A stretch of DNA of 64,000 nucleotides, taken from the IMG/VR virus record IMGVR_UViG_3300025730_000007, positions 1 through 64,000 of that record; one strand, 5' to 3'. How positions within the stretch are numbered: position 1 is the first letter of the stretch; every line of letters starts with the position of its first letter. Positions 1-42,143 of the stretch are shown here, in pieces. A program made the translations under genes and the position numbers. This DNA is from a virus (Duplodnaviria; Caudoviricetes). Below the pieces are notes generated by a model, which was not told where the DNA came from, made no database searches, and saw nothing but the letters and a program-made list of their open reading frames with translations.

Positions 1-2487
1 ATTGCCTATCTCGACATTGAGACGGACTCCAGGTTGACGTTCACGCGTAAGCACGAGATGCGAGTGCTCTGCGCTTGTGTGGTTGCGGGGTGTGATGCGC
101 CAGAGTCCGACGTGCGCAAGGGGGAGCACGCAATGTTCGTGCTCGACCACGACACTGACGTTGACGAGGCTCGATTGCTGATTGACCTGTTCAATTGGCT
201 TGAGACGTTCGACGTGGTTGCGGCGTGGTACGGGGACGGCTTTGACTTTGAGGTACTCCGCGCACGGGCTCGCGCGCACGGGCTCTCCATCAACTTCCAG
301 CGCTGGAGGTTCCTCGATCACCTTGAGGTGTTCAAAGGGCTTAATTCCCACATTGCGGAGAGCGGTGAGGAGAAGCAGAGCATGGCCCTCAATACCGTAG
401 CGCAAGCGGTGCTCGGTGAGGGTAAGCACGACTTCGATTCGAGCAAGACGTGGCAGGCATGGGAAGCGGGGGGTGCAGAGCGGCAACGGATGTTCGACTA
501 CTGTCGCCAGGACACCGAGCTACTGCTCAAGATTGAGGAGCGTACCGGATACATCGCATTGTTCGGAACCATGTGCGCCGCGTGCAAGCTATTCGTCGAA
601 ACGTACTCACTCAAGAGTACCGCACAGATGGACGGCTTCATGTTGCGTCTCGGCAAGGAGCGCGGGTTCCACTTCCCGAGCAAGTTCGACGAGCCCATCC
701 CCGACCGCTATGCGGGAGCCTTCGTGCTCCACCCGGAGTGCAAGGGCATCCAGCACGATGTTCACGTTGCCGACTTCAGTTCGCTGTATCCGAGCATCAT
801 CATCAGTTGGAACATGAGCCCTGAGACGGTCGACCACAATGTCCCGGTCAACGGCCCCATTGCCCCCCACCTCTGTCGCGCACCTTCCACGGGTATCTCG
901 TTCCGCACCGACATCGAGGGGATGCTCCCCGTTGCGCTGAAGACGCTCATCGCAATGCGCAAGAAGTGGAACGACCTCAAGGCGTCATTGCCCCCCGGAA
1001 CCCCGGAATGGGTAGATGCCGATCGTTGGAGCATGGCATACAAGGTGCTCGCCAATTCGTTCTACGGGGTGCTCGGTAGCATCTTCTCTCGGTACTATGA
1101 CAGAGGCATTGCCGAGAGCGTCACTACCTCTGGCGCATGGCTCATCAAAGCTACCATCCACGAAGCCAAACAATGGGGGGGATTCGAGACCATCTACGGG
1201 GACACCGACTCCATCTTCGTGGCACGCGAGGGGGACGGTTCCGAGATAGGCTCAGTCGGCTATACCGACTTCATGCGCTTCGTGGAGCATTGCAACGCCA
1301 ACCTCTACCCCGACATGCTCAAGCGGCAGGGGTGCAAGGCCAACCGCATCTCACTCGCATACGAAAAGGCATTCAAGCGCTTGGCCCTCGTCAGTGCGAA
1401 GAAGTATGTCGGTGTCTATGCTCATTACAAGGGCAAGCCGGCAACCGCTGACAGCAAGCCCGAGGTGAAGGGGCTTGAGTACAAGCGCGGTGACACCGTA
1501 CGCCTCGCGCGGCAGATGCAGGGGGAGGTGATTGACCTGTTCGTTCGCGCGGTCGAGTCGGCTGATGAGTATGACCGGCTCGTCGAGCGGTGGAAGCTCC
1601 GAGTGTTGGAAGCCCCACTCGACATTGAGGATGTCGTGCTCTCGCAATCGCTCTCGATGCCGATTGAGGAGTACAAGGCCAAGACACCCCCGGCCCATGT
1701 CCGCGTTGCATCGCTTCTCAAGGAGCGGGGCGAGGACGTGTCGGTCGGGGTCAAGATTGCCTACTTCGTAGTCGACGGCAAGCCGGATGAGCCGGGGGGA
1801 GCGAAGGTTGCCCCGGCCAGCGATTGGACCGGGGAGTGCGACCGTTTCGCCCTCTGGGAGAATCTGGTCTACCCCGCGACTCAGCGGCTCCTTGAGGCAT
1901 CGTTCCCCGAGTACGATTGGACCCGCCATGCGAAGGTTCGCCCCCGCAAGCGGCGAGGCAAGGGGGCAAGCGGCGAGGACACCTTGGCGCTACCGTTGCC
2001 GGCCCCTAGCAGCCTCACCAGAGGCTCGCAGGGGGCAACCCCGGCCCCAACCCCTCGGCCCCCGGCCCGAGCCCATGGGGGGCCGTCTGTGCTCCCCCGC
2101 AAGCCGGCCAAGCCAACCCCCCAACCCCCGGCCCCTGCGGAGCCCGTGGGAGGCTCGGGGCCGGCCCCCCTTGCCCGTACCACCCCCCGGCTCCCGCAAG
2201 CCTCCCAGGGGGCAACCCCGGCCCCTGCCGCAACACGTATTGCGGTCACGCTCGATGCCAGGGACCGGCCCGAGGATGACCCGGCCCCCATTGCGGCGGT
2301 CAAAGCGCTCGCCAGCGTGTTCGACGCGTTGCCGGTCGGGGCCACCCCTGTCAGGGTCACTCTGCTTCTCGACGGTGGTGAGGTGGAGTTGGCGGTAGAG
2401 CGGAAGGTGGAATTGCGGCGGAGTACGATTGCCACCTTGCAGAAAACGGTGCTCGGGCTTGGCAAGGTGGCATTGATTACGGCATAA
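1..2487 (+). CDS. polB: Family B DNA polymerase with 3'-5' exonuclease (5' end outside window), Pro-rich linker and extra C-terminal domain
   Basis: Frame is open from base 1 (IAYLDIETDS = ExoI). Also ExoII WYGDGFD, ExoIII YCRQD, motif A DFSSLYPSII, motif B KVLANSFYG, motif C YGDTDS. Confidence 0.97.
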   Translation: MAYLDIETDSRLTFTRKHEMRVLCACVVAGCDAPESDVRKGEHAMFVLDHDTDVDEARLLIDLFNWLETFDVVAAWYGDGFDFEVLRARARAHGLSINFQRWRFLDHLEVFKGLNSHIAESGEEKQSMALNTVAQAVLGEGKHDFDSSKTWQAWEAGGAERQRMFDYCRQDTELLLKIEERTGYIALFGTMCAACKLFVETYSLKSTAQMDGFMLRLGKERGFHFPSKFDEPIPDRYAGAFVLHPECKGIQHDVHVADFSSLYPSIIISWNMSPETVDHNVPVNGPIAPHLCRAPSTGISFRTDIEGMLPVALKTLIAMRKKWNDLKASLPPGTPEWVDADRWSMAYKVLANSFYGVLGSIFSRYYDRGIAESVTTSGAWLIKATIHEAKQWGGFETIYGDTDSIFVAREGDGSEIGSVGYTDFMRFVEHCNANLYPDMLKRQGCKANRISLAYEKAFKRLALVSAKKYVGVYAHYKGKPATADSKPEVKGLEYKRGDTVRLARQMQGEVIDLFVRAVESADEYDRLVERWKLRVLEAPLDIEDVVLSQSLSMPIEEYKAKTPPAHVRVASLLKERGEDVSVGVKIAYFVVDGKPDEPGGAKVAPASDWTGECDRFALWENLVYPATQRLLEASFPEYDWTRHAKVRPRKRRGKGASGEDTLALPLPAPSSLTRGSQGATPAPTPRPPARAHGGPSVLPRKPAKPTPQPPAPAEPVGGSGPAPLARTTPRLPQASQGATPAPAATRIAVTLDARDRPEDDPAPIAAVKALASVFDALPVGATPVRVTLLLDGGEVELAVERKVELRRSTIATLQKTVLGLGKVALITA
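2228..2245 (+). repeat. 18-bp quasi-palindrome CCGCAACACGTATTGCGG, copy 1
   Basis: In-frame in polymerase linker (ATRIAV). Confidence 0.98.
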
Positions 2488-2506
2488 CCACACAGAGGAG
2501 GCCACT

Positions 2507-3070
2507 ATGAGACGCGTGGAGACACCCCCACAAGCGGAGCCGGTCAAGCCGACTAAACCATACCCGTTCGCCGACTCCGCATCTCGCCGCTATGTTCGCA
2601 CTGACCCCCACATGGCGCGCATATTCGAGACGCTCTTTCAGGTCGACATCTGGGAGAACTTCAAACGGCTCAAAGCCGCTCTGCGGGTGGGCGAGAAGCA
2701 TCGCGACTATGCAACACTGATGAAGGCACTCGACGAGGCGGAGGACAACGCCAGACTCGCCCACTCGCTGTTCGTCAATGCCAAGCTGGTCGCGGAGCGT
2801 TTCGAGACTGATGCCTTGCTCATCGAGGCGGGAATGCGCAAGGAGGCGACCGCGTTGCTCCAAGGGGAGAAGACGGCGGGTCGTCTCAGCAAGGCAATCA
2901 CAGACGCCGATGTGGTGGCTCAGTGTGCCACCATGTTTCCAGACGAGTGGACCCGTATCCAAGTGGACCGCCGTCAACACAAGCTCACCGTCAGTCACCT
3001 GGAGCACTTGGTGACTTGCTGGACAAGCCGATGCCGTAGCCTTCAGACCATGGTGGCGAAGGTGCGGTGA
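2507..3070 (+). CDS. Helical phage protein, possibly UvsY-like recombination mediator
   Basis: GAGGAG RBS; helical 187 aa with KAITDADV segment; sits between polymerase and SSB/RecA. Function inferred from context. Confidence 0.4.
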   Translation: MRRVETPPQAEPVKPTKPYPFADSASRRYVRTDPHMARIFETLFQVDIWENFKRLKAALRVGEKHRDYATLMKALDEAEDNARLAHSLFVNAKLVAERFETDALLIEAGMRKEATALLQGEKTAGRLSKAITDADVVAQCATMFPDEWTRIQVDRRQHKLTVSHLEHLVTCWTSRCRSLQTMVAKVR

Positions 3071-3109
3071 AGCACCCTACGGGGAACGCACAACGCAAGG
3101 AGATTGAAC

Positions 3110-4315
3110 ATGCCAGGAATGGACCTCAACGCTTTTCTCGGACACTCGTCGACCGTCAGCACGCGGGGCAAGTATCTCAACAAGTGGAAGAAGAACAACC
3201 CGCCGCAAGTCGATGTCTGGCTCCACACGAAGGCACTCATTCAGTCGCTCTGGCAGCACGGCATTCCGCGTCTGTTCGAGAAGGAGGACAAGGCAACCGG
3301 CGAGAAGACCATCGAGGTGTGGAGTGGCTCGTGGGTCTGCTGGGAGGATGAGGAGGTACTCCAGAAGCAGTATCTCCGCGACCGCGATACCGGAGCACGC
3401 GCTTATCCGCCGTGCATCTGCCCCGTCTGCAAGCTCATCGAGTACGTTCGCGATGCAGTGGAGTCGGGCGAACTGAGTTGGACTGCTCCGTTGTTCCGCT
3501 TCGCGGGGAGCGACCCGAGCAAGACACTCATCATCCATGCCGGGGGGCTCTACAACGCATTCGGGCGCAGCGACTTGACCGAGAAGGACAAGGAGGAACT
3601 CAAGCAAGCCCGAATCTACCGCAAGGATGCGTGGAGGGAGAACGCAATGGCGAAGCTCTCCTACGTGTTCAGCGTGGTCGACAACGCCAACCCGCAAGAG
3701 GGGCCGCAGATTGCCATTGAGACTTCGCTTCTCGGAGACAAGGTGAAGGAGGTCATCAATGCGGCGATGATGGAGGCGGAGGATGAGGGCAACCCGCTCG
3801 TGAACCCCTACGCAATCCGCTGGATCTACCGCCCTGACGAGCAGCAATTCAACAAGAAGTACAATGCGGTCAAGATGGGCAAACACCCGCTCACGGCGGA
3901 GATTCGGTGCGTCATCTTCGACACTGACCCGCCGGACCTCAGCAAGATTGTGGCGCGGCGCGACCCCAACGTGCTTCTGGCTCAGTTGCAAGCGGCTCAC
4001 AAGCCGTACGCCAAGAAGCACGAGTTGCCGCTCGACGACCTGTTCGCCGATGCCATTGAGGAATGGGAGCGCAAGGGAGACACCTCGTTCAACCCCGATG
4101 ACTACGATGCAGAGGACGAGGCACCCAAGCCGGCCAAGCAGACAAGGCCGGCTCAACAACCCCCCAAGGCACCCAAGCCGGCCAAGGCGACGGCGCGTTC
4201 GTTGTGCTACGAGTGCGGGGAGTTCATCGACGAGGGGCAACCGTGCTCCAATTGCGGATACGACCCGAAGCCGTCTGGCCCCCCCATCGACCCGGACGAC
4301 GACCTTCCGTACTGA
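3110..4315 (+). CDS. Single-stranded DNA-binding protein (gp32-like) with Zn motifs and acidic tail
   Basis: GGAG RBS; CICPVC motif, C-terminal CxxC..CxxC ribbon, ends DPDDDLPY (SSB-type tail); adjacent to RecA. Confidence 0.7.
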   Translation: MPGMDLNAFLGHSSTVSTRGKYLNKWKKNNPPQVDVWLHTKALIQSLWQHGIPRLFEKEDKATGEKTIEVWSGSWVCWEDEEVLQKQYLRDRDTGARAYPPCICPVCKLIEYVRDAVESGELSWTAPLFRFAGSDPSKTLIIHAGGLYNAFGRSDLTEKDKEELKQARIYRKDAWRENAMAKLSYVFSVVDNANPQEGPQIAIETSLLGDKVKEVINAAMMEAEDEGNPLVNPYAIRWIYRPDEQQFNKKYNAVKMGKHPLTAEIRCVIFDTDPPDLSKIVARRDPNVLLAQLQAAHKPYAKKHELPLDDLFADAIEEWERKGDTSFNPDDYDAEDEAPKPAKQTRPAQQPPKAPKPAKATARSLCYECGEFIDEGQPCSNCGYDPKPSGPPIDPDDDLPY

Positions 4316-4392
4316 CACGCAAGCGTGACCCGCGTTGAGCCCTCCTTGCGCCTCATGGTGCTCGGGGGGCTCAACTCGTTTGGAGGTGCTCA

Positions 4393-5628
4393 ATGCGCAG
4401 AGTGATTACGCCAGAAGAACCGAAGATTGAGACTGAGGACTTCGACGTGGATGCCGCGATGGAGGCGGTCCCCCACGACCCACGGCAAGAGCGGTGGTCG
4501 GAGTTGGCAGGGGTTGCAGAGGAGTTCTCGTTGTGGAAGCCGGCCCCCGAGGTGCTCACTCAGGTGCGGAGTGTGCGGACCATCTTCCCCATGTTCGACC
4601 GTGCGACCCGCGTGTTCGGCTATCCCATTGACCGGGTGAACACGGTCCACGGGCCGAGCAACCACGGGAAGACGGCATTCAGTCTCGGGCTCGGGCTTTC
4701 GTTCCTCCGACAAGGGCATATCTTCGCGCACATTGACGCGGAGATGACAACCCCCGCAACGTGGATCTCCAAGCTCTTTGGGCAAGAGGTCAACAACCCC
4801 GGCTTCCTGGCAATGCGGCCCCGGAACTACGAGCAAGCGATTGACGGTGTGAAGCAACTCACCGACAAGCTCGCCGATGCACGGGCTCAAGGTAGGGTTG
4901 CCGAGGACACAACCGCTCTCATCGTGGTCGACAGCATTCGCAAGCTCGCCCCGAAAGCGCTGCTCGCCAAGATTGCCAAGGAAGGGGCCGACGGCTTGGG
5001 GGGCAGAGCAGCGCAACTGAAAGCGGCAATGAACCAAGCATGGCTCGACGACCTCACGCCGCAACTCTACCACACTGGAGCGTCGGTGTTGCTCATTGCG
5101 CGGGAGTCGGAGCGCCCGAATGCCACCGATGACGAGCGCAAGTATGACACCGCGTGGCAAGTGCAAGGGGGCCGGGGCATCATCTACGACGCAAGCCTCG
5201 TGATGCGTATCACTCGCTCTGCTTGGGTGTATGGCCCCAAGCGGGGGGACAAGGCCGGCCCCGTTCTCGGTGAGAAGATCAAGGTGTCAATCTGGAAGAC
5301 GAAGGTCGAGGGCAAGGACGACAAGCATGCAATCGGCTTCTTCCACTTGAGCAACGGAGCCCTCGTGCCCGAGGGGTTCGACCGTGCGAGGGACGTGCTC
5401 GAACTCGCAATCTCCTACGGCATAATCGAGCAGAAGGGCTCGTGGTTTGCCTACAATGGGCGGAATGTCGCGCAAGGCAAGGATGCAGTCGTCAAGGTTC
5501 TGCACGCCAACCACAAGCTCCTCAATCACATCGAGAATGCCTGTCGGGATGAGTTCAAGCCCGACGAACTGGTCCCCATGGGCCACGACACAGAGGAGGA
5601 TGTTGATGAAAGTGATAGTCACCGCTGA
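4393..5628 (+). CDS. recA: RecA/UvsX-like recombinase
   Basis: Walker A GPSNHGKT, HIDAE, Walker B LIVVDS, GGRGIIYDAS, C-terminal IIEQKGSWFAY. Confidence 0.95.
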   Translation: MRRVITPEEPKIETEDFDVDAAMEAVPHDPRQERWSELAGVAEEFSLWKPAPEVLTQVRSVRTIFPMFDRATRVFGYPIDRVNTVHGPSNHGKTAFSLGLGLSFLRQGHIFAHIDAEMTTPATWISKLFGQEVNNPGFLAMRPRNYEQAIDGVKQLTDKLADARAQGRVAEDTTALIVVDSIRKLAPKALLAKIAKEGADGLGGRAAQLKAAMNQAWLDDLTPQLYHTGASVLLIARESERPNATDDERKYDTAWQVQGGRGIIYDASLVMRITRSAWVYGPKRGDKAGPVLGEKIKVSIWKTKVEGKDDKHAIGFFHLSNGALVPEGFDRARDVLELAISYGIIEQKGSWFAYNGRNVAQGKDAVVKVLHANHKLLNHIENACRDEFKPDELVPMGHDTEEDVDESDSHR

Positions 5629-36994: not shown

Positions 36995-37264
36995 GTGTTT
37001 GCGTGGTTGAAGGACAAGGCGTTTCTGTTGTTCGCCATAGCGGTCGAGCTATGGCGACAGCGCAATGAGCCCTATCCCCCACCCTCCACCCCGGCCATTG
37101 ACGAGGACAACGCTGCTCCGCTCCAACCCATCATTCCCCCCGAGGGGTTGGCAATGAGGTGGAGGGAGGAAGCCCCAACCAAGCCCGATGTCAACCCCAA
37201 GCCAGAGCCTCTGCGTGGTAGCCTTGCAGACCGCGTGGAGAAGGCGAGACGAGGCAATCAATGA
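36995..37264 (+). CDS. Small protein with N-terminal hydrophobic segment
   Basis: FLLFAIAVELW; ATGA-coupled to portal. Confidence 0.6.
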   Translation: MFAWLKDKAFLLFAIAVELWRQRNEPYPPPSTPAIDEDNAAPLQPIIPPEGLAMRWREEAPTKPDVNPKPEPLRGSLADRVEKARRGNQ

Positions 37265-39378
37265 ACGAGCCCCTAGCCGACATCATCCCCTTCATGCAGG
37301 TCACTACCGACTTCAGCCGGTATGGCTTCAGCGACAACGCATCTAACTTCCGCGCAACGCGCGTCGTGGACAGTGTGCGGTGGAAGGAGATGGAGCGTTG
37401 GCAGCGATACTTTGAGTGCAAGCAACACGATGCCAAGCGCTACGACTTCGACGGGCGGCTCATGGCTCCTCGTGCTGTCGGTAGCGGGTATTCCCAACCG
37501 CTCATCAGCGCCGAGCGTGCGACGTGGTATGTCCCTCTGAGAGCGCGCAAGCCGTCTACCCCCTACCGCATCGGTCGCCGCATCGTGCTCAGTTTCACAA
37601 GCATGGTGTTCGGTGAGAGTCGTTGGCCCGATGTGGTGGTCAATGGGGACACTGACGCGCAGGAGTTCCTCAACGCGCTAGTCGAGGAGACTGGACTACC
37701 GACCAAGATGATCCAACTCCGCAACATCGGCGGCTCGGTTGGCACGGCGGGACTGTCGTGGTGCTATCACAACGGGGTTCCCAACGTCGAAGTCCACAAC
37801 GGCAAGGGCATCATTGTCCACGAGTGGGCAGACAGGGCGAAGCTACGCCCGAAGCATGTCACTGAGGTGTACCGCTACGAGCGTGACCATTGGGATGCAA
37901 AGAGGCGTTCCTACGTGCGTGAGCTATGGTGGCATCGGCAGGACTGGACCGAGGTTGCCGACGTGGTGTTCAAGGAGTGCAAGGTCGAAGGCAACAACGA
38001 GCCAAGGTGGGAGGTCGATGAGGAACTGACTACCATCCACAATGACGGCTTCTGCCACTTCGTCTACGTGCAGAACATCCCGCCCATTGACGGCGTGGAC
38101 GGGTTGCCCGACTGCGACGGAGTGTGGGATCAGATGGACACGCTCGACATCCTGGTCAGTATCCTCGCCCGTGGTGGGGTACTCAATCTCGACCCGACAC
38201 TGAAGCTCAAGATGGACCCCGAGCTTGTCGAGATGGCGTTCGTGCGCAAGGGTAGCGACAACGCGCTAGTGACCGGCGAGACGGGCGACGCGAGCTACAT
38301 GGAACTCGCGGGGAGCAGCATCACGGCGGGTATCTCACTGATGCAGATGCTACGCGTGCAGACGTTGGAGAGTACGGAGTGTGTCATTCCCGACCCCGAC
38401 AAGGTTGCGGCGGCAGGAACGAGCAGCGTGGCACTCAAGATGGTCTATGCCCCCATGCTCTCCAAGTGCGACCTACTGCGTGACCAGTATGGCAAAGCTC
38501 TGCGCGAGCTACTGAGGCAGATGCTTGTCGTGGCCCAACGCATCTACAAGCCACGTCTCGAAACACGCAACGGGGAGGACGGCACTGACGAAGAGGTGGA
38601 GGTCACTGGCTTCATCCACCTCCAGCCGAAGGTGATTGTCGAGCCAGTGTTCGACGAGGACGGCGAGGAGACTGACGAAGAGTCTGTCACCATGGAGCCG
38701 CATACGCCGGGAACGTCGAGCTACATCGAACTCAGTTGGGGGCCATACTTCCGCCCGACTGCGGATGACCAGCAGAAGACGGTATCGACACTCACACAAG
38801 GCACGGGGGGCAAGGCTGTTCTGTCGCAGAAGACTGCGGTGGAGTTGCTCGCGGGGCTCATCAGTCGCGACCCGTCGAAGATGCTCGACGAACTCTACAA
38901 GGAACAGGATGCCGAAGCCGAGAAGCGCAAGGCATTGATGGACAGCATGGGTGGGCAACCCGGCCAACCCGTCGAGCCGATGGAGCACGAGGACGAGACT
39001 GAGGAGCAAGAGACTGAGACAGAGCAACCCCCGGTCCAGGCAAGCGAGGCCAAGGTGGAAGTCACTGGCGAGGAGCCAGTCGTCATCGACGAAGCCGGCC
39101 AAGCCCCACCCCCTCCAGCGAAGGAGGTCAGCGTGACACTGACTGCCACCGACGTCGCCAACATCGTCACCGTCAACGAGGCTCGCGCTTCGCAAGGGCT
39201 CGGGCCGTTGCTGCTCGCCAACGGGGAGCCCGACCCGGACGGCAACCTCATGGTCAGCGAGTTCAAGGCGAAGCGAGCCGCCATGATTGCGATGGTGGCA
39301 GGGGCCGAGCAGGGGCAAGCCCCCGGCGAGGAGCCACCCCCCGACCAAGGTGGGTTCGGGGGAGGCTTCGGAGGCTAA
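37261..39378 (+). CDS. Portal protein
   Basis: 705 aa upstream of gpF-like gene; FVYVQN, LAGSSI...ESTEC.IPDP..V...SSVALK pattern; acidic tail. Confidence 0.8.
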   Translation: MNEPLADIIPFMQVTTDFSRYGFSDNASNFRATRVVDSVRWKEMERWQRYFECKQHDAKRYDFDGRLMAPRAVGSGYSQPLISAERATWYVPLRARKPSTPYRIGRRIVLSFTSMVFGESRWPDVVVNGDTDAQEFLNALVEETGLPTKMIQLRNIGGSVGTAGLSWCYHNGVPNVEVHNGKGIIVHEWADRAKLRPKHVTEVYRYERDHWDAKRRSYVRELWWHRQDWTEVADVVFKECKVEGNNEPRWEVDEELTTIHNDGFCHFVYVQNIPPIDGVDGLPDCDGVWDQMDTLDILVSILARGGVLNLDPTLKLKMDPELVEMAFVRKGSDNALVTGETGDASYMELAGSSITAGISLMQMLRVQTLESTECVIPDPDKVAAAGTSSVALKMVYAPMLSKCDLLRDQYGKALRELLRQMLVVAQRIYKPRLETRNGEDGTDEEVEVTGFIHLQPKVIVEPVFDEDGEETDEESVTMEPHTPGTSSYIELSWGPYFRPTADDQQKTVSTLTQGTGGKAVLSQKTAVELLAGLISRDPSKMLDELYKEQDAEAEKRKALMDSMGGQPGQPVEPMEHEDETEEQETETEQPPVQASEAKVEVTGEEPVVIDEAGQAPPPPAKEVSVTLTATDVANIVTVNEARASQGLGPLLLANGEPDPDGNLMVSEFKAKRAAMIAMVAGAEQGQAPGEEPPPDQGGFGGGFGG

Positions 39379-39381
39379 CCC

Positions 39382-41469
39382 ATGGCCGGCCCCAAGCGGC
39401 CCACCAGAGGCTCGGCAGGCTCCCCGGCCCCCCAACCCCCGGCCAAGCCTGCCAAGCCTCCTAGCCCCCGAACACGAGCCGGCAAGCCGGCGAAGCCGGG
39501 AGGGGTGGCAACCCCTGCCACGGTTCGCACGGAGCAAGCCAAGGAGCGTGTCATTCGGGCGACCATTCTCAATCGTCAGCAAGCGTTCACCTATGCCAAC
39601 CAAGTCGGAGTAGACCGGGTGGTCAGTGTGCTACGTCGGGCCATGGCTGACTTGGAGCTACGCCTCGCCACGGTTCCCCGCTCGCTCATTGTCGAGGGGG
39701 CATTCACCCCGACTGCCATGCGGGCGACAATGCATCAGATCGAAGACCTCATTGCCGAGTTGGTTGTGCCAGGGGTGAGGGGCGCAGTCATCGACAGCAA
39801 GCGAGTCGCCGCTGCTCTAGGCAAGGTCGACGGGTTGCGCAATCTGGTCGAGATGGATACCCGCTTTGCTGGCATCGTCTCGACCGCGCGTCTCGGCATT
39901 GCCTCCCAGCTTGACCCGTACGGCAAGGGGCCGAACGCCTCAGTGCTCAGACGCCTTGCTACCGAGTACCCCAAGGAGGCTCCCGGCAAGGGCATCATGG
40001 AGCGCTATGGCATGGAGGTGATTGGCAAGTTTGAGGAGCGGCTCATGGTGGCGACCATCAGCGGCAAGCCGTGGACTGAGGTACGGGAAGACCTCATTAG
40101 CGAGTCTCAGTGGTTGGAGGAGAGCCCCATGTTCTGGGCTCAACGTATCGTTCGCACGGAATGCTTTACAGGGGACTCAATCGTGTCGTCTGCGATGGTG
40201 AGGGCAGTCTACAGACGGTGGTATGAGGGGGAGATTGTGAAAGTTAGAACTCGTGGTGGACGCGAGTTCTCCGCAACCCCTAATCACCCGATGCTGACGG
40301 AACGAGGGTGGCTTGCGGCGCATCAACTCAAGGTGGGAGATAACTTGGTCTGCCACTCGTGGAATGAGGACTTTGGTTCTGCGGGAGATCAAGATGTAGC
40401 AGGAAGACCAGCCACGATGGCTGAGGTATTCAATGCGGCGGCAACAATAGGGGTCATTGAACGGAGACGTGGAGGAAAGCCAGACTTCCACGGCGATGGG
40501 ATGGAGGGCAATGTCAATATTGCGCGTCCCACAAGGCTCTTGGGGGTGGGGGAATTCACCCCTGTCACGGAGCCATTGTGTCACAAGGTCTTCACCCCAA
40601 CCGACAAGTCTGCTCTTGCCTTCTGCCCCTCGTGTGGTGGCTTGCTCCCTGTCGATGAGACTTCTCACTTGTGCGGGACTCCTGAGTTCAACGCCATTGC
40701 GTTCGAGTCTTGCGGTGATGGCTCTGTTGGAGACACCCAAGCTGGAAGCGATGTGGCTCAAGGGTTCCCCGGACTCGTAGCGAGTCACTATGCTACGCTC
40801 GTCGAGGGGGATGGTTCGGGGGTGTCCAATGACGGCAAAGCGGTTGGTTGCGGCTTCACTTCTAGTTCGCAAGAGCCCCTCAACAATGAGCGCCTTTCTG
40901 AGACGGAACCTACCAATCCCGCATTGAAGGCTGGCGGAATCGAGGCTCTCCCCGTTGGCGTAGAGGTGGATAGCATTGTTGAGATTGTCATCGAGGACTT
41001 TGCGGGTCATGTCTACAACCTTACAACTCCGCACGGGTACTATGCAATCAATGGTATCTACACCGGCAATTGTATGGGAGCATACAACCGAAGCATCCTT
41101 GAGAACGGCGAGGAGGCCAACGACATCGTGGGCGGCGACATGGTGAAGATCCTTGTCGCCGGCTTCGACGACCGTACGGGGTGGGATAGCTATCAGGTTC
41201 ACGGACAGATACGTAGGCTGGACGAGCCGTTTGAGTGGGTGACTAAGAACGGTGAGACTATTGCTTACATGACTCCACCCAATCGGCCCAACGACCGGGA
41301 GGTGGTAGTCTTCCACCGCGTTGCGTGGGAGATACCCGAGGAGCTTCAGCCCGTGCCCGACGCGGTGTACGAGGCGCGGTTTGCGGAGCAGAACAAGAAG
41401 GGCAGTCCACCCGAGCGTCCGAAGATGACTACTGTTCCGCTTGGATTGTTTGGCAAGGAGAGCGCGTGA
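39382..41469 (+). CDS. Mu gpF-like head morphogenesis protein interrupted by an intein
   Basis: Exteins RIVRTE|CMGAYN, FDDRTGWDS, PPNRPNDRE; located after portal. Confidence 0.9.
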   Translation: MAGPKRPTRGSAGSPAPQPPAKPAKPPSPRTRAGKPAKPGGVATPATVRTEQAKERVIRATILNRQQAFTYANQVGVDRVVSVLRRAMADLELRLATVPRSLIVEGAFTPTAMRATMHQIEDLIAELVVPGVRGAVIDSKRVAAALGKVDGLRNLVEMDTRFAGIVSTARLGIASQLDPYGKGPNASVLRRLATEYPKEAPGKGIMERYGMEVIGKFEERLMVATISGKPWTEVREDLISESQWLEESPMFWAQRIVRTECFTGDSIVSSAMVRAVYRRWYEGEIVKVRTRGGREFSATPNHPMLTERGWLAAHQLKVGDNLVCHSWNEDFGSAGDQDVAGRPATMAEVFNAAATIGVIERRRGGKPDFHGDGMEGNVNIARPTRLLGVGEFTPVTEPLCHKVFTPTDKSALAFCPSCGGLLPVDETSHLCGTPEFNAIAFESCGDGSVGDTQAGSDVAQGFPGLVASHYATLVEGDGSGVSNDGKAVGCGFTSSSQEPLNNERLSETEPTNPALKAGGIEALPVGVEVDSIVEIVIEDFAGHVYNLTTPHGYYAINGIYTGNCMGAYNRSILENGEEANDIVGGDMVKILVAGFDDRTGWDSYQVHGQIRRLDEPFEWVTKNGETIAYMTPPNRPNDREVVVFHRVAWEIPEELQPVPDAVYEARFAEQNKKGSPPERPKMTTVPLGLFGKESA
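40162..41070 (+). mobile_element. Intein (303 aa, Cys261-Asn563, +1 Cys)
   Basis: Block A CFTGDS, block B FSATPNHPML, GW..A..LKVGD, block F GHVYNLTT, block G YYAINGIYTGN/C; AT-richer than flanks. Confidence 0.95.
40177..41010 (-). CDS. Antisense nested HTH-HTH-Vsr/DUF559-like endonuclease (putative homing endonuclease, 277 aa)
   Basis: ATG 41010 preceded by TAAGGT SD; two HTH repeats (AIHLYANGESLDSASLQCGIGRFRLRKAL; IVTRYESGEPLSHIASSLGVSNRAITARL); nuclease GEDLVTQWL..Q...NIDIAL...AVEV...RIEYLSHRGW. Confidence 0.85.
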   Translation of the reverse strand: MTRKVLDDNLNNAIHLYANGESLDSASLQCGIGRFRLRKALIVEGLLRTRSEAATNRFAVIGHPRTIPLDERSIVTRYESGEPLSHIASSLGVSNRAITARLERNGVELRSPAQVRSLIDREQATTRGAEGKSRLVGWGEDLVTQWLRDRGEFPHPQEPCGTRNIDIALHPIAVEVWLSSTSPFNDPYCCRRIEYLSHRGWSSCYILISRRTKVLIPRVADQVISHLELMRRKPPSFRQHRVIRGCGELASTTSSNFHNLPLIPPSVDCPHHRRRHD

Positions 41470-41471
41470 CA

Positions 41472-41489
41472 CCGCAACACGTATTGCGG
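41472..41489 (+). repeat. 18-bp quasi-palindrome copy 16
   Basis: 2 nt after gpF stop. Confidence 0.98.
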
Positions 41490-41494
41490 TGGAG

Positions 41495-41523
41495 TTGAAC
41501 CAACCCCGACACCCTGATAGGCT
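41495..41523 (+). promoter_or_regulatory. Sigma70-like promoter TTGAAC-N17-TAGGCT
   Basis: Starts 5 nt after an 18-bp repeat copy, upstream of head genes. Confidence 0.45.
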
Positions 41524-41553
41524 TGCACTATGGCAAAGAAAGAAGGAGGCTAT

Positions 41554-41697
41554 ATGGGCTTTGACAAGCTCACTGAGAGCCTCAAAGAAAAGGGCCACGA
41601 CGAGGACAGCGCGAAGGCACTCGCCGCTTGGATTGGGCGGAAGAAGTATGGTGCGAGTCAGATGGCGCAGATGGCGCAAGCTGGCAAGAAGGGGTGA
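41554..41697 (+). CDS. Small head-region protein (47 aa)
   Basis: AGGAGG RBS; MGFDKLTESLKEKGHDEDSAKALAAWIGRKKYG... Confidence 0.7.
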   Translation: MGFDKLTESLKEKGHDEDSAKALAAWIGRKKYGASQMAQMAQAGKKG

Positions 41698-41700
41698 GTC

Positions 41701-41922
41701 ATGCCGTTCAAGAACATGCAAGAACCCAAAGTCACCAACGGTCCAGTCGACACCACTGAGGGCCGCGAGGGATACGGTAGCGAGTTCGACATGATGGAGG
41801 AGCAACTCGACTACCAGCAGAGCGACCCGAACTGGCGAGCGGACGAGAAGGGGAGGCCGACCAGTGAGCCAATCGCCTACGAGGATGTCGGAGGACGAAA
41901 GTCCTTCAAGCTCAATCAGTGA
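41701..41922 (+). CDS. Small acidic head-region protein
   Basis: ORF follows the previous stop codon. Confidence 0.6.
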   Translation: MPFKNMQEPKVTNGPVDTTEGREGYGSEFDMMEEQLDYQQSDPNWRADEKGRPTSEPIAYEDVGGRKSFKLNQ

Positions 41923-42143
41923 GCCCCTCCGCAAGTGGCTCCACCGTAGTCGCTCCAACGCTACAGCGTTGTTCCGCAGGTTGGGTGAAGAGGCCAAGAC
42001 ACCGCTCGACGCCTATGAGCACTTGAGACGCCGCTTGACGGGAGATGAACCGGGAGGCACTATCTCGAAACGTGTTGTCGCTCAACTTGAACGCAGCGAA
42101 CGCGCGTACAAGGGATGGGAGACAAGGTGGAGCAAGGAGCAGA

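Follow-up and report, generated by a model that had tools for sequence, protein, structure and literature searches.

The 64,000-nucleotide stretch analysed here (the window; positions 1 to 64,000 of the IMG/VR virus record IMGVR_UViG_3300025730_000007) contains a MuF-like head-morphogenesis gene interrupted by a contiguous 303-residue intein. The opposite strand of the intein DNA carries a fully nested open reading frame (ORF) for a 277-residue protein, P0001. Inteins normally encode their endonuclease in-frame, within the same polypeptide. The evidence described below makes it very probable that this locus is a mobile intein with an anti-sense VSR-like homing endonuclease, residing in the MuF-like head gene of an 85-kb metagenomic phage. 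Both frames are open in codon register, P0001 has the predicted fold of a protein with helix-turn-helix (HTH) modules and a Vsr-like nuclease core, the antisense frame is under purifying selection, and the layout is conserved in about 90 loci. The arrangement was first proposed in an earlier note, which had been made from the sequence of the window alone.

The intein and the antisense reading frame

The sense frame encodes a class-1-type intein. Its Cys1 is encoded at 40162, block B (TPNHP) at 40276-40290 and block F (GHVYNL) at 41005-41022. The C-terminal Asn (41068-41070) is followed by Cys+1 (TGT, 41071-41073); the end of the intein reads GHVYNLTTPHGYYAINGIYTGN followed by C, and its penultimate residue is Gly rather than His. 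Translation confirmed these landmarks, as well as the boundaries and the length given in the earlier note. The NCBIfam model TIGR01445 (intein_Nterm) matched with 34.4 bits, above its curated cut-off of 24.5. Pfam Intein_splicing gave a single split match (E 2.5e-7), which extended across intein residues 10-299 and reached profile position 151 of 155 with 31.1 bits, under the cut-off of 35.8. Because this match is stretched over residues 10-299, the two splicing halves must lie about 200 residues apart, separated by a segment without any match. In agreement with the earlier note, the sense intein had no LAGLIDADG or HNH family match at E≤1. An AlphaFold2 (AF2) model of the sense intein, computed from the single sequence without an alignment, had a mean predicted local distance difference test score (pLDDT) of 34; the score was low even in the Hint blocks, and the model is therefore non-discriminating.

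The reverse strand is read in exact codon register with the sense frame. The codons of sense DFHGD (40483-40497), when reverse-complemented, give IAVEV (P0001 residues 172-176), and block B TPNHP mirrors antisense RVIRG. The antisense ATG is the CAT codon of the block F His, and a TAAGGT Shine-Dalgarno (SD) sequence stands 7 nt ahead of it on the reverse strand. The ORF, its register and its start had all been described in the earlier note, and all were found in the sequence as described. The start and the SD sequence recur in homologues. The His codon of GHV[YF]NL doubles as the endonuclease ATG in most of 71 distinct loci, and the NLxT codons read backwards give GGAGG, GAGG or AAGG 7-9 nt upstream of the ATG. 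An SD-like core was present in 45 of the 71, a count in which some misses stem from naive start-codon choice. The endonuclease initiation region and intein block F are thus the same DNA. Separate expression of the nuclease from the antisense strand, as put forward in the earlier note, would be consistent with the selection described below and with the conserved ATG and SD. Two terminator-like sites were found in 39800-41600, no more than in shuffled sequences.

The sense motif (D/K)FHGD is also found at the equivalent place in the related loci L001-L008, and is conserved across very distant inteins. Its conservation is explained by the opposite strand, since it mirrors the invariant (I/V)AVE(V/I) codons of the endonuclease. 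It is a 'ghost' motif, which risks being taken for an intein block.

P0001 has many relatives. An exhaustive HMMER search found 1,384 cluster representatives at E≤1e-3, 459 of them at ≤1e-10, and a word-indexed search found 24 matches with 25-58% identity, several with HTH families and PF18741 (REase_MTES_1575). AF2, run with an alignment of 54 relatives, modelled P0001 with a mean pLDDT of 91.1 as a pair of HTH modules, each of three helices, and an alpha/beta core. Among PDB sequences, a profile search picked out the tandem-HTH protein 2lvs (4.5e-9) and 3hrl (1.7e-3), and the HTHs of resolvase and GcrA were structural matches at a Z score of 6.4. HTH Pfam families were matched by 29-37 of the 54 relatives and PF18741 (MTES_1575 REase) by 17, but PF18741 was not matched by the window protein itself. 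Foldseek, run against the PDB with the whole model, returned weak rows only (best E 0.02); the nuclease domain was resolved by the exhaustive aligner. VIA-align superposed the nuclease core on E. coli Vsr (1cw0; Z 10.4, 109 residues, root-mean-square deviation (rmsd) 2.9), on the DUF559-like 3hrl (Z 9.1, rmsd 1.9) and on the catalytic domain of I-Bth0305I (3r3p; Z 9.1). Four residues of the core are invariant in the 54 relatives: E140 (40591-40593), Q157, D166 (40513-40515) and E175 (40486-40488). The layout of two tandem HTH repeats followed by a Vsr/DUF559-type nuclease, which the earlier note had read from the letters, was borne out by the confidence of the AF2 model and by its superposition on Vsr. 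On this structural evidence the antisense ORF is predicted to encode a real protein that combines two HTH modules with a Vsr-like nuclease core (Table 1).

Table 1. Features of the head gene, its intein and the antisense ORF (window coordinates)
Feature	Position	Strand	Basis or remark
Portal gene	37261..39378		Directly upstream of the MuF-like gene; phrog_64 match 5.4e-9
Head-morphogenesis (MuF-like) precursor gene	39382..41469	+	695 aa; ORF list
Class-1-type intein, 303 aa (ORF residues 261-563)	40162..41070	+	CFTGDS to YTGN; translation
Putative homing-endonuclease gene, P0001, 277 aa + stop (40177-40179)	40177..41010	-	Nested within the intein, codon-in-register
Stretch constrained in both frames, endonuclease residues 216-277 opposite the intein N-terminal splicing domain	40177..40362	both	Omega 0.22 (sense) and 0.35 (antisense)
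Predicted Vsr-like PD-(D/E)XK nuclease core, residues 135-254	40249..40608	-	Structural alignment, invariant columns
Two predicted helix-turn-helix modules, about residues 7-44 and 71-104	40699..40992	-	AF2 secondary structure
Putative endonuclease translation start	41008..41023	-	ATG = CAT His codon of block F (41008-41010); TAAGGT 41018-41023

Selection in the two frames

A single pair was close enough for the comparison of nonsynonymous and synonymous divergence (dN and dS; dN/dS, omega): the window and its closest relative in IMG/VR, found as L010/L011/L090. The alignment of this pair is near-gapless, with few gaps in the exteins. The other relatives have at most 70% nucleotide identity, and for these codon-position counts were used instead.

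The exteins evolved as sense-strand coding sequence. In the N-extein the differences at positions 1, 2 and 3 of the sense codon numbered 26, 15 and 94 (sense omega 0.068, dS 1.42), and in the C-extein 9, 4 and 52 (sense omega 0.055, dS 1.06); the antisense frame behaved as non-coding in both, with omega above 1 and 4.1, respectively. The centre of the intein showed the opposite pattern. There the differences were distributed as 52, 11 and 26, the highest variability falling on the third position of the antisense codon, and omega was 0.92 in the sense frame and 0.19-0.21 in the antisense frame (dS 0.44). The sense amino acid identity of the pair in the centre was 71% at a nucleotide identity of 86%. 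In the N-terminal domain of the intein (differences 10, 2 and 13) both values were low, 0.16-0.22 in the sense frame (dS 0.40) and 0.35-0.45 in the antisense frame.

The more distant loci gave the same picture. Among 71 such pairs, which are not independent of each other, variability in the centre peaked at the third position of the endonuclease codon in every pair, whereas in the tail it peaked at the sense third position in 58. In 73 distinct loci the endonuclease frame was better conserved at residues 31-215 and the sense frame at residues 216-277, and opposite endonuclease residues 31-125 the sense frame averaged a BLOSUM score of about 0 or below. The 73-locus alignment was built on the endonuclease proteins and therefore favours the endonuclease frame, a bias from which the ungapped close pair is free.

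Taken together, these sequence comparisons indicate that in the centre of the intein selection acts on the antisense frame and the sense frame drifts, with the reverse in the exteins, and that constraint in both frames is limited to about 60 codons opposite the N-terminal splicing domain. The RVIRG segment, opposite TPNHP, lies there in a confidently modelled beta-hairpin of the nuclease (AF2 strands at 240-253). The earlier note had proposed a per-strand comparison of dN/dS and had suggested that remaining open is all that is required of the sense frame. This suggestion agrees with the values of the centre, but not with those of the last 60 or so endonuclease codons, where the sense frame is constrained as well.

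Upstream of the ATG at 41010 the antisense frame is open from 41997, and would encode 606 residues from a TTG. No homologue extends into this additional part (41011-41997, another 329 codons, opposite the C-extein and beyond). The homologues begin at the ATG at 41010, and the antisense omega opposite the C-extein (4.1; comparison with L090) is that of non-coding evolution.

Conservation of the layout, insertion sites and possible mobility

Antisense stops, which the earlier note had named as evidence against its proposal, were looked for in the homologues. Both frames were stop-free and in register in 90 of 92 matches (89 loci, GC 0.43-0.73); the other two frames contained 2-38 stops. The two exceptions look like boundary effects, at least one of them arising from ORF extension. 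For the window by itself an open antisense frame is only mildly unlikely (P about 0.003 and 0.03), because at 56% GC the -1 frame is poor in stops. Keeping both frames open requires avoidance of TTA, CTA and TCA, and when this was evaluated given the codon usage of the exteins of the same gene, the low-GC loci yielded P values of 1e-6 to 1e-14 per locus (3e-6 and 2e-9 for Aaphi23).

In a tblastn search of GenBank phages P0001 matched 35 records. The carriers include Gordonia phages, Haemophilus/Aggregatibacter phage Aaphi23 and S1249, Pseudomonas aeruginosa phages, Cronobacter phage ES2 and Virus Rctr197k. The match lay opposite an annotated head-protein (MuF-like) gene in all three records inspected (Gordonia phage Malisha, Aaphi23 and a Pseudomonas phage), and the remaining matches fall on genes whose annotation is MuF-like, minor capsid, head morphogenesis or hypothetical. 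In IMG/VR, 323 stretches that encode a P0001 relative were recovered by a scan, the search pattern being the mirror of block B and thus biased to nested copies. In tblastn with the sense intein, relatives aligned over residues 1-126 or 1-159 only, while the antisense match covered 88-97%.

The N-terminal domain of the sense intein also matches head-morphogenesis inteins of many Salmonella (Jersey-like), Escherichia (Snoke) and Klebsiella phages, which had no tblastn match to P0001. On three long metagenome contigs (L004:2563-3864, L007:3001-3921 and L008:1675-3981) the gene callers kept the antisense ORF and omitted the head gene, and as a consequence the phage appears to lack this gene.

Two insertion sites were distinguished. 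At site a, which is used in the window, in L004 and by the first intein of L008, the intein follows RTE, and the three loci share a junction in which RTE, the intein and (C/T)xxA(Y/L)N follow each other. At site b the intein stands before C(R/K)C (Malisha, Aaphi23, L007 and the second intein of L008). L008 is the clearest case of a double intein: a single gene on the minus strand (1654-4665, 1003-residue ORF) contains two inteins, at the RTE and CRC sites, and each has its endonuclease ORF on the plus strand (3001..3981 and 1675..2709). Two inteins in one MuF-type gene were also found in L053, L033 and L050, each intein with an antisense ORF for an HTH + Vsr-like protein; L033 and L050 gave two endonuclease matches each.

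Two observations hint, at the level of sequence comparison, at movement of the intein. In the close pair dS of the intein (0.40-0.44) is about one third of that of the flanking exteins (1.06-1.42), and the exteins of the window cannot be aligned by BLASTP with those of L004 and L008 (E above 1), where the endonucleases are 37-44% identical.

The window is part of an 85,194-base IMG/VR virus genome rated complete by CheckV. The host gene of the intein may reasonably be labelled MuF-like on the basis of the RTE..AYN junction motif, its position after the portal gene and relatives with the same intein type, whose exteins match PF04233 (Phage_Mu_F). In these relatives the intein at site a precedes the match (profile positions 40-107), and the intein at site b follows it (profile positions 1-107). 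The phrog_15127 'head protein' match of the 695-residue ORF is confined to its intein part. The N-terminus of the head protein (39382-39560) contains a Pro/Ala/Lys-rich low-complexity stretch of about 50 residues with a GC content of 0.70-0.72, and is the part of the protein least conserved in comparison with L090.

If the mobile-intein interpretation is correct, the 303 sense codons would be translated as part of the head protein, and the N- and C-terminal Hint blocks would assemble and excise the insert by splicing; the stretch of roughly 210 codons between the blocks would serve only as an open-frame linker. The opposite strand would be a separate gene for the 277-residue protein, in which two HTH modules for DNA binding accompany a Vsr-like nuclease core. 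Translation of this endonuclease would start at a separate ATG, the reverse reading of the block F His codon, and would use a ribosome-binding site of its own in the NLTT codons. It would cut intein-less alleles at the junction between RTE and CMGAYN, and repair would copy the intein together with the endonuclease into the cut gene (homing).

Several results weigh against this interpretation or parts of it. The exteins of the window had no Pfam, NCBIfam or PHROG family match, and a search of the whole genome for PF04233 was negative; the name gpF-like, which the earlier note had given to the gene, thus lacks profile support from the window itself, although motif, synteny and the PF04233 matches of the relatives speak for it. 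The window protein does not have the His that comes after the AVE motif in some relatives (GGNWH). A scan of both strands of 39800-41600 revealed no sigma-70-like promoter, but the promoter type of the host may differ. A search for an intein-less allele with the N-extein found only intein-bearing close relatives, and the lower dS of the intein, which comes from one pair, could partly reflect the constraints of overlapping frames. The missing His, promoter and empty site would also fit an endonuclease gene that is real but no longer drives homing, the intein being fixed and vertically inherited and the protein either decaying or acting in another role, such as a DNA-binding regulator or a nicking enzyme; most VSR-like cases are reported to look vertically inherited (bioRxiv 10.1101/2025.01.02.630785). 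Decay is difficult to reconcile with the antisense omega of 0.19 and the intact invariant acidic residues, and the dS of the intein, about a third of that of the exteins, suggests later exchange. Moreover, in every locus examined the family is nested opposite an intein-bearing head gene whose sense frame is open in register, which ties the fate of the endonuclease to the intein. We therefore regard loss of homing as unlikely.

Two further explanations concern the coding capacity of the strands. The antisense ORF might be a by-product, a stop-poor -1 in-register frame of a GC-rich gene whose conservation mirrors that of the sense intein. The weak stop avoidance in the window, the antisense frame that stays open opposite the C-extein without coding, and the existence of mirror motifs (DFHGD/IAVEV, TPNHP/RVIRG) would all be expected in such a case. 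The contrast between the two omega values in the intein centre, the confidently modelled Vsr-like fold, the HTH and PF18741 matches of the relatives, the loci where both frames are open at 43-47% GC (P down to 1e-14), and the short sense alignments compared with the nearly full antisense coverage leave this explanation with practically no credibility. It is also very improbable that both strands encode functional domains in the centre, with the sense middle folded, for example, as a zinc ribbon around CPSCGG. A weak Zn_ribbon_NOB1 match (E 0.088, sense residues 140-160) and the conservation of DFHGD across loci are in favour of such a domain; against it stand the near-neutral sense omega of 0.92, the divergence of the sense protein in the centre, the low sense BLOSUM scores in the 73 loci, and the fact that DFHGD is accounted for as the mirror of the invariant AVE codons.

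Relation to known systems and implications

Anti-sense VSR-like endonucleases in full inteins of actinobacteriophages, with minor capsid proteins among the host proteins, were described by Gosselin, Arsenault and Gogarten (bioRxiv 10.1101/2025.01.02.630785, October 2025 version), who reported a predicted Vsr match with Z 10.6 to 1CW0 over residues 144-267 and an HHpred link to 3R3P. The locus in the window resembles theirs in having an uninterrupted intein in a minor capsid (MuF-type) protein of a phage, an endonuclease ORF antisense inside the intein, and a Vsr-like fold after a helical region (Z 10.4 here, 10.6 there) with a link to I-Bth0305I (3R3P). The two data sets overlap, as the tblastn matches of P0001 include Gordonia phages from their surveyed database. 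Unlike their actinobacteriophage isolates, the host here is an uncultivated 85-kb metagenomic phage, and its intein follows RTE (site a), whereas the Gordonia phages carry theirs at NC(R/K)C (site b). The statement of the earlier note that the architecture had not been described must consequently be abandoned, all the more since antisense LAGLIDADG inteins have been known from 1998. The codon register, the overlap of the endonuclease ATG and SD with block F, the frame-specific dN/dS and the stop-avoidance statistics were measured here and are not in the preprint. The spread to phages of Pasteurellaceae, Pseudomonas and Cronobacter also goes beyond it, and the overlap of block B with the nuclease hairpin and the two-site and double-intein cases were added.

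The older antisense LAGLIDADG inteins (Gorbalenya 1998, Gogarten 2002; Synechocystis DnaX), as they are cited in the same preprint, share with the locus of the window an endonuclease on the strand opposite a contiguous intein. They differ, as far as that account goes, in their host genes and in the nuclease family, which here is Vsr-like. In fractured genes (Dassa et al. 2009, PMC2677866) a free-standing gene for a Vsr-like or GIY-YIG endonuclease lies between the halves of a split intein. The intein-associated Vsr-like homing endonuclease is a separately translated gene there, as it would be here; the difference is that in fractured genes all three coding regions are on one strand, whereas in the window an unbroken intein completely overlaps an endonuclease ORF that runs antisense to it. 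With a single uninterrupted 695-residue sense ORF and the endonuclease on the opposite strand, the element is not a split intein, and with no LAGLIDADG or HNH endonuclease domain in the sense frame it is not a canonical bifunctional intein. I-Bth0305I, an EDxHD homing endonuclease, has its gene in a group I intron (Taylor et al. 2011, PMC3239194). The catalytic domain of P0001 has the fold of I-Bth0305I and of E. coli Vsr, but its identity to them is 13-18%, the EDxHD His is not evident in it, and it is preceded by an N-terminal tandem HTH.

This kind of element was thus published in 2025, and the locus of the window is a further example with added quantitative detail rather than a discovery. 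We lean slightly towards the view that such loci represent a large, old and obligately interlocked unit, and not the rare side-track in a few actinobacteriophages as which the preprint treats them. The overlaps of block F with the endonuclease start and of block B with the nuclease hairpin, the approximately 1,400 clusters (50% identity) that seem to occur almost only within inteins of MuF-type head genes, the two insertion sites, which are sometimes both occupied in one gene, and the occurrence in phages of several bacterial phyla all point in this direction. If this view is correct, the two proteins have shaped each other's evolution codon by codon, and one of the two is systematically missing from standard annotations. 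Gene callers report the head gene or the endonuclease, never both. In this element about 830 bases appear to code on both strands with a clear division of labour: selection acts on the antisense frame in the centre and on the sense frame at the ends, and constraint falls on both over about 60 codons. With regard to the biology of inteins, the locus speaks for the idea that endonuclease genes which stand alone can settle in an intein whatever their orientation.

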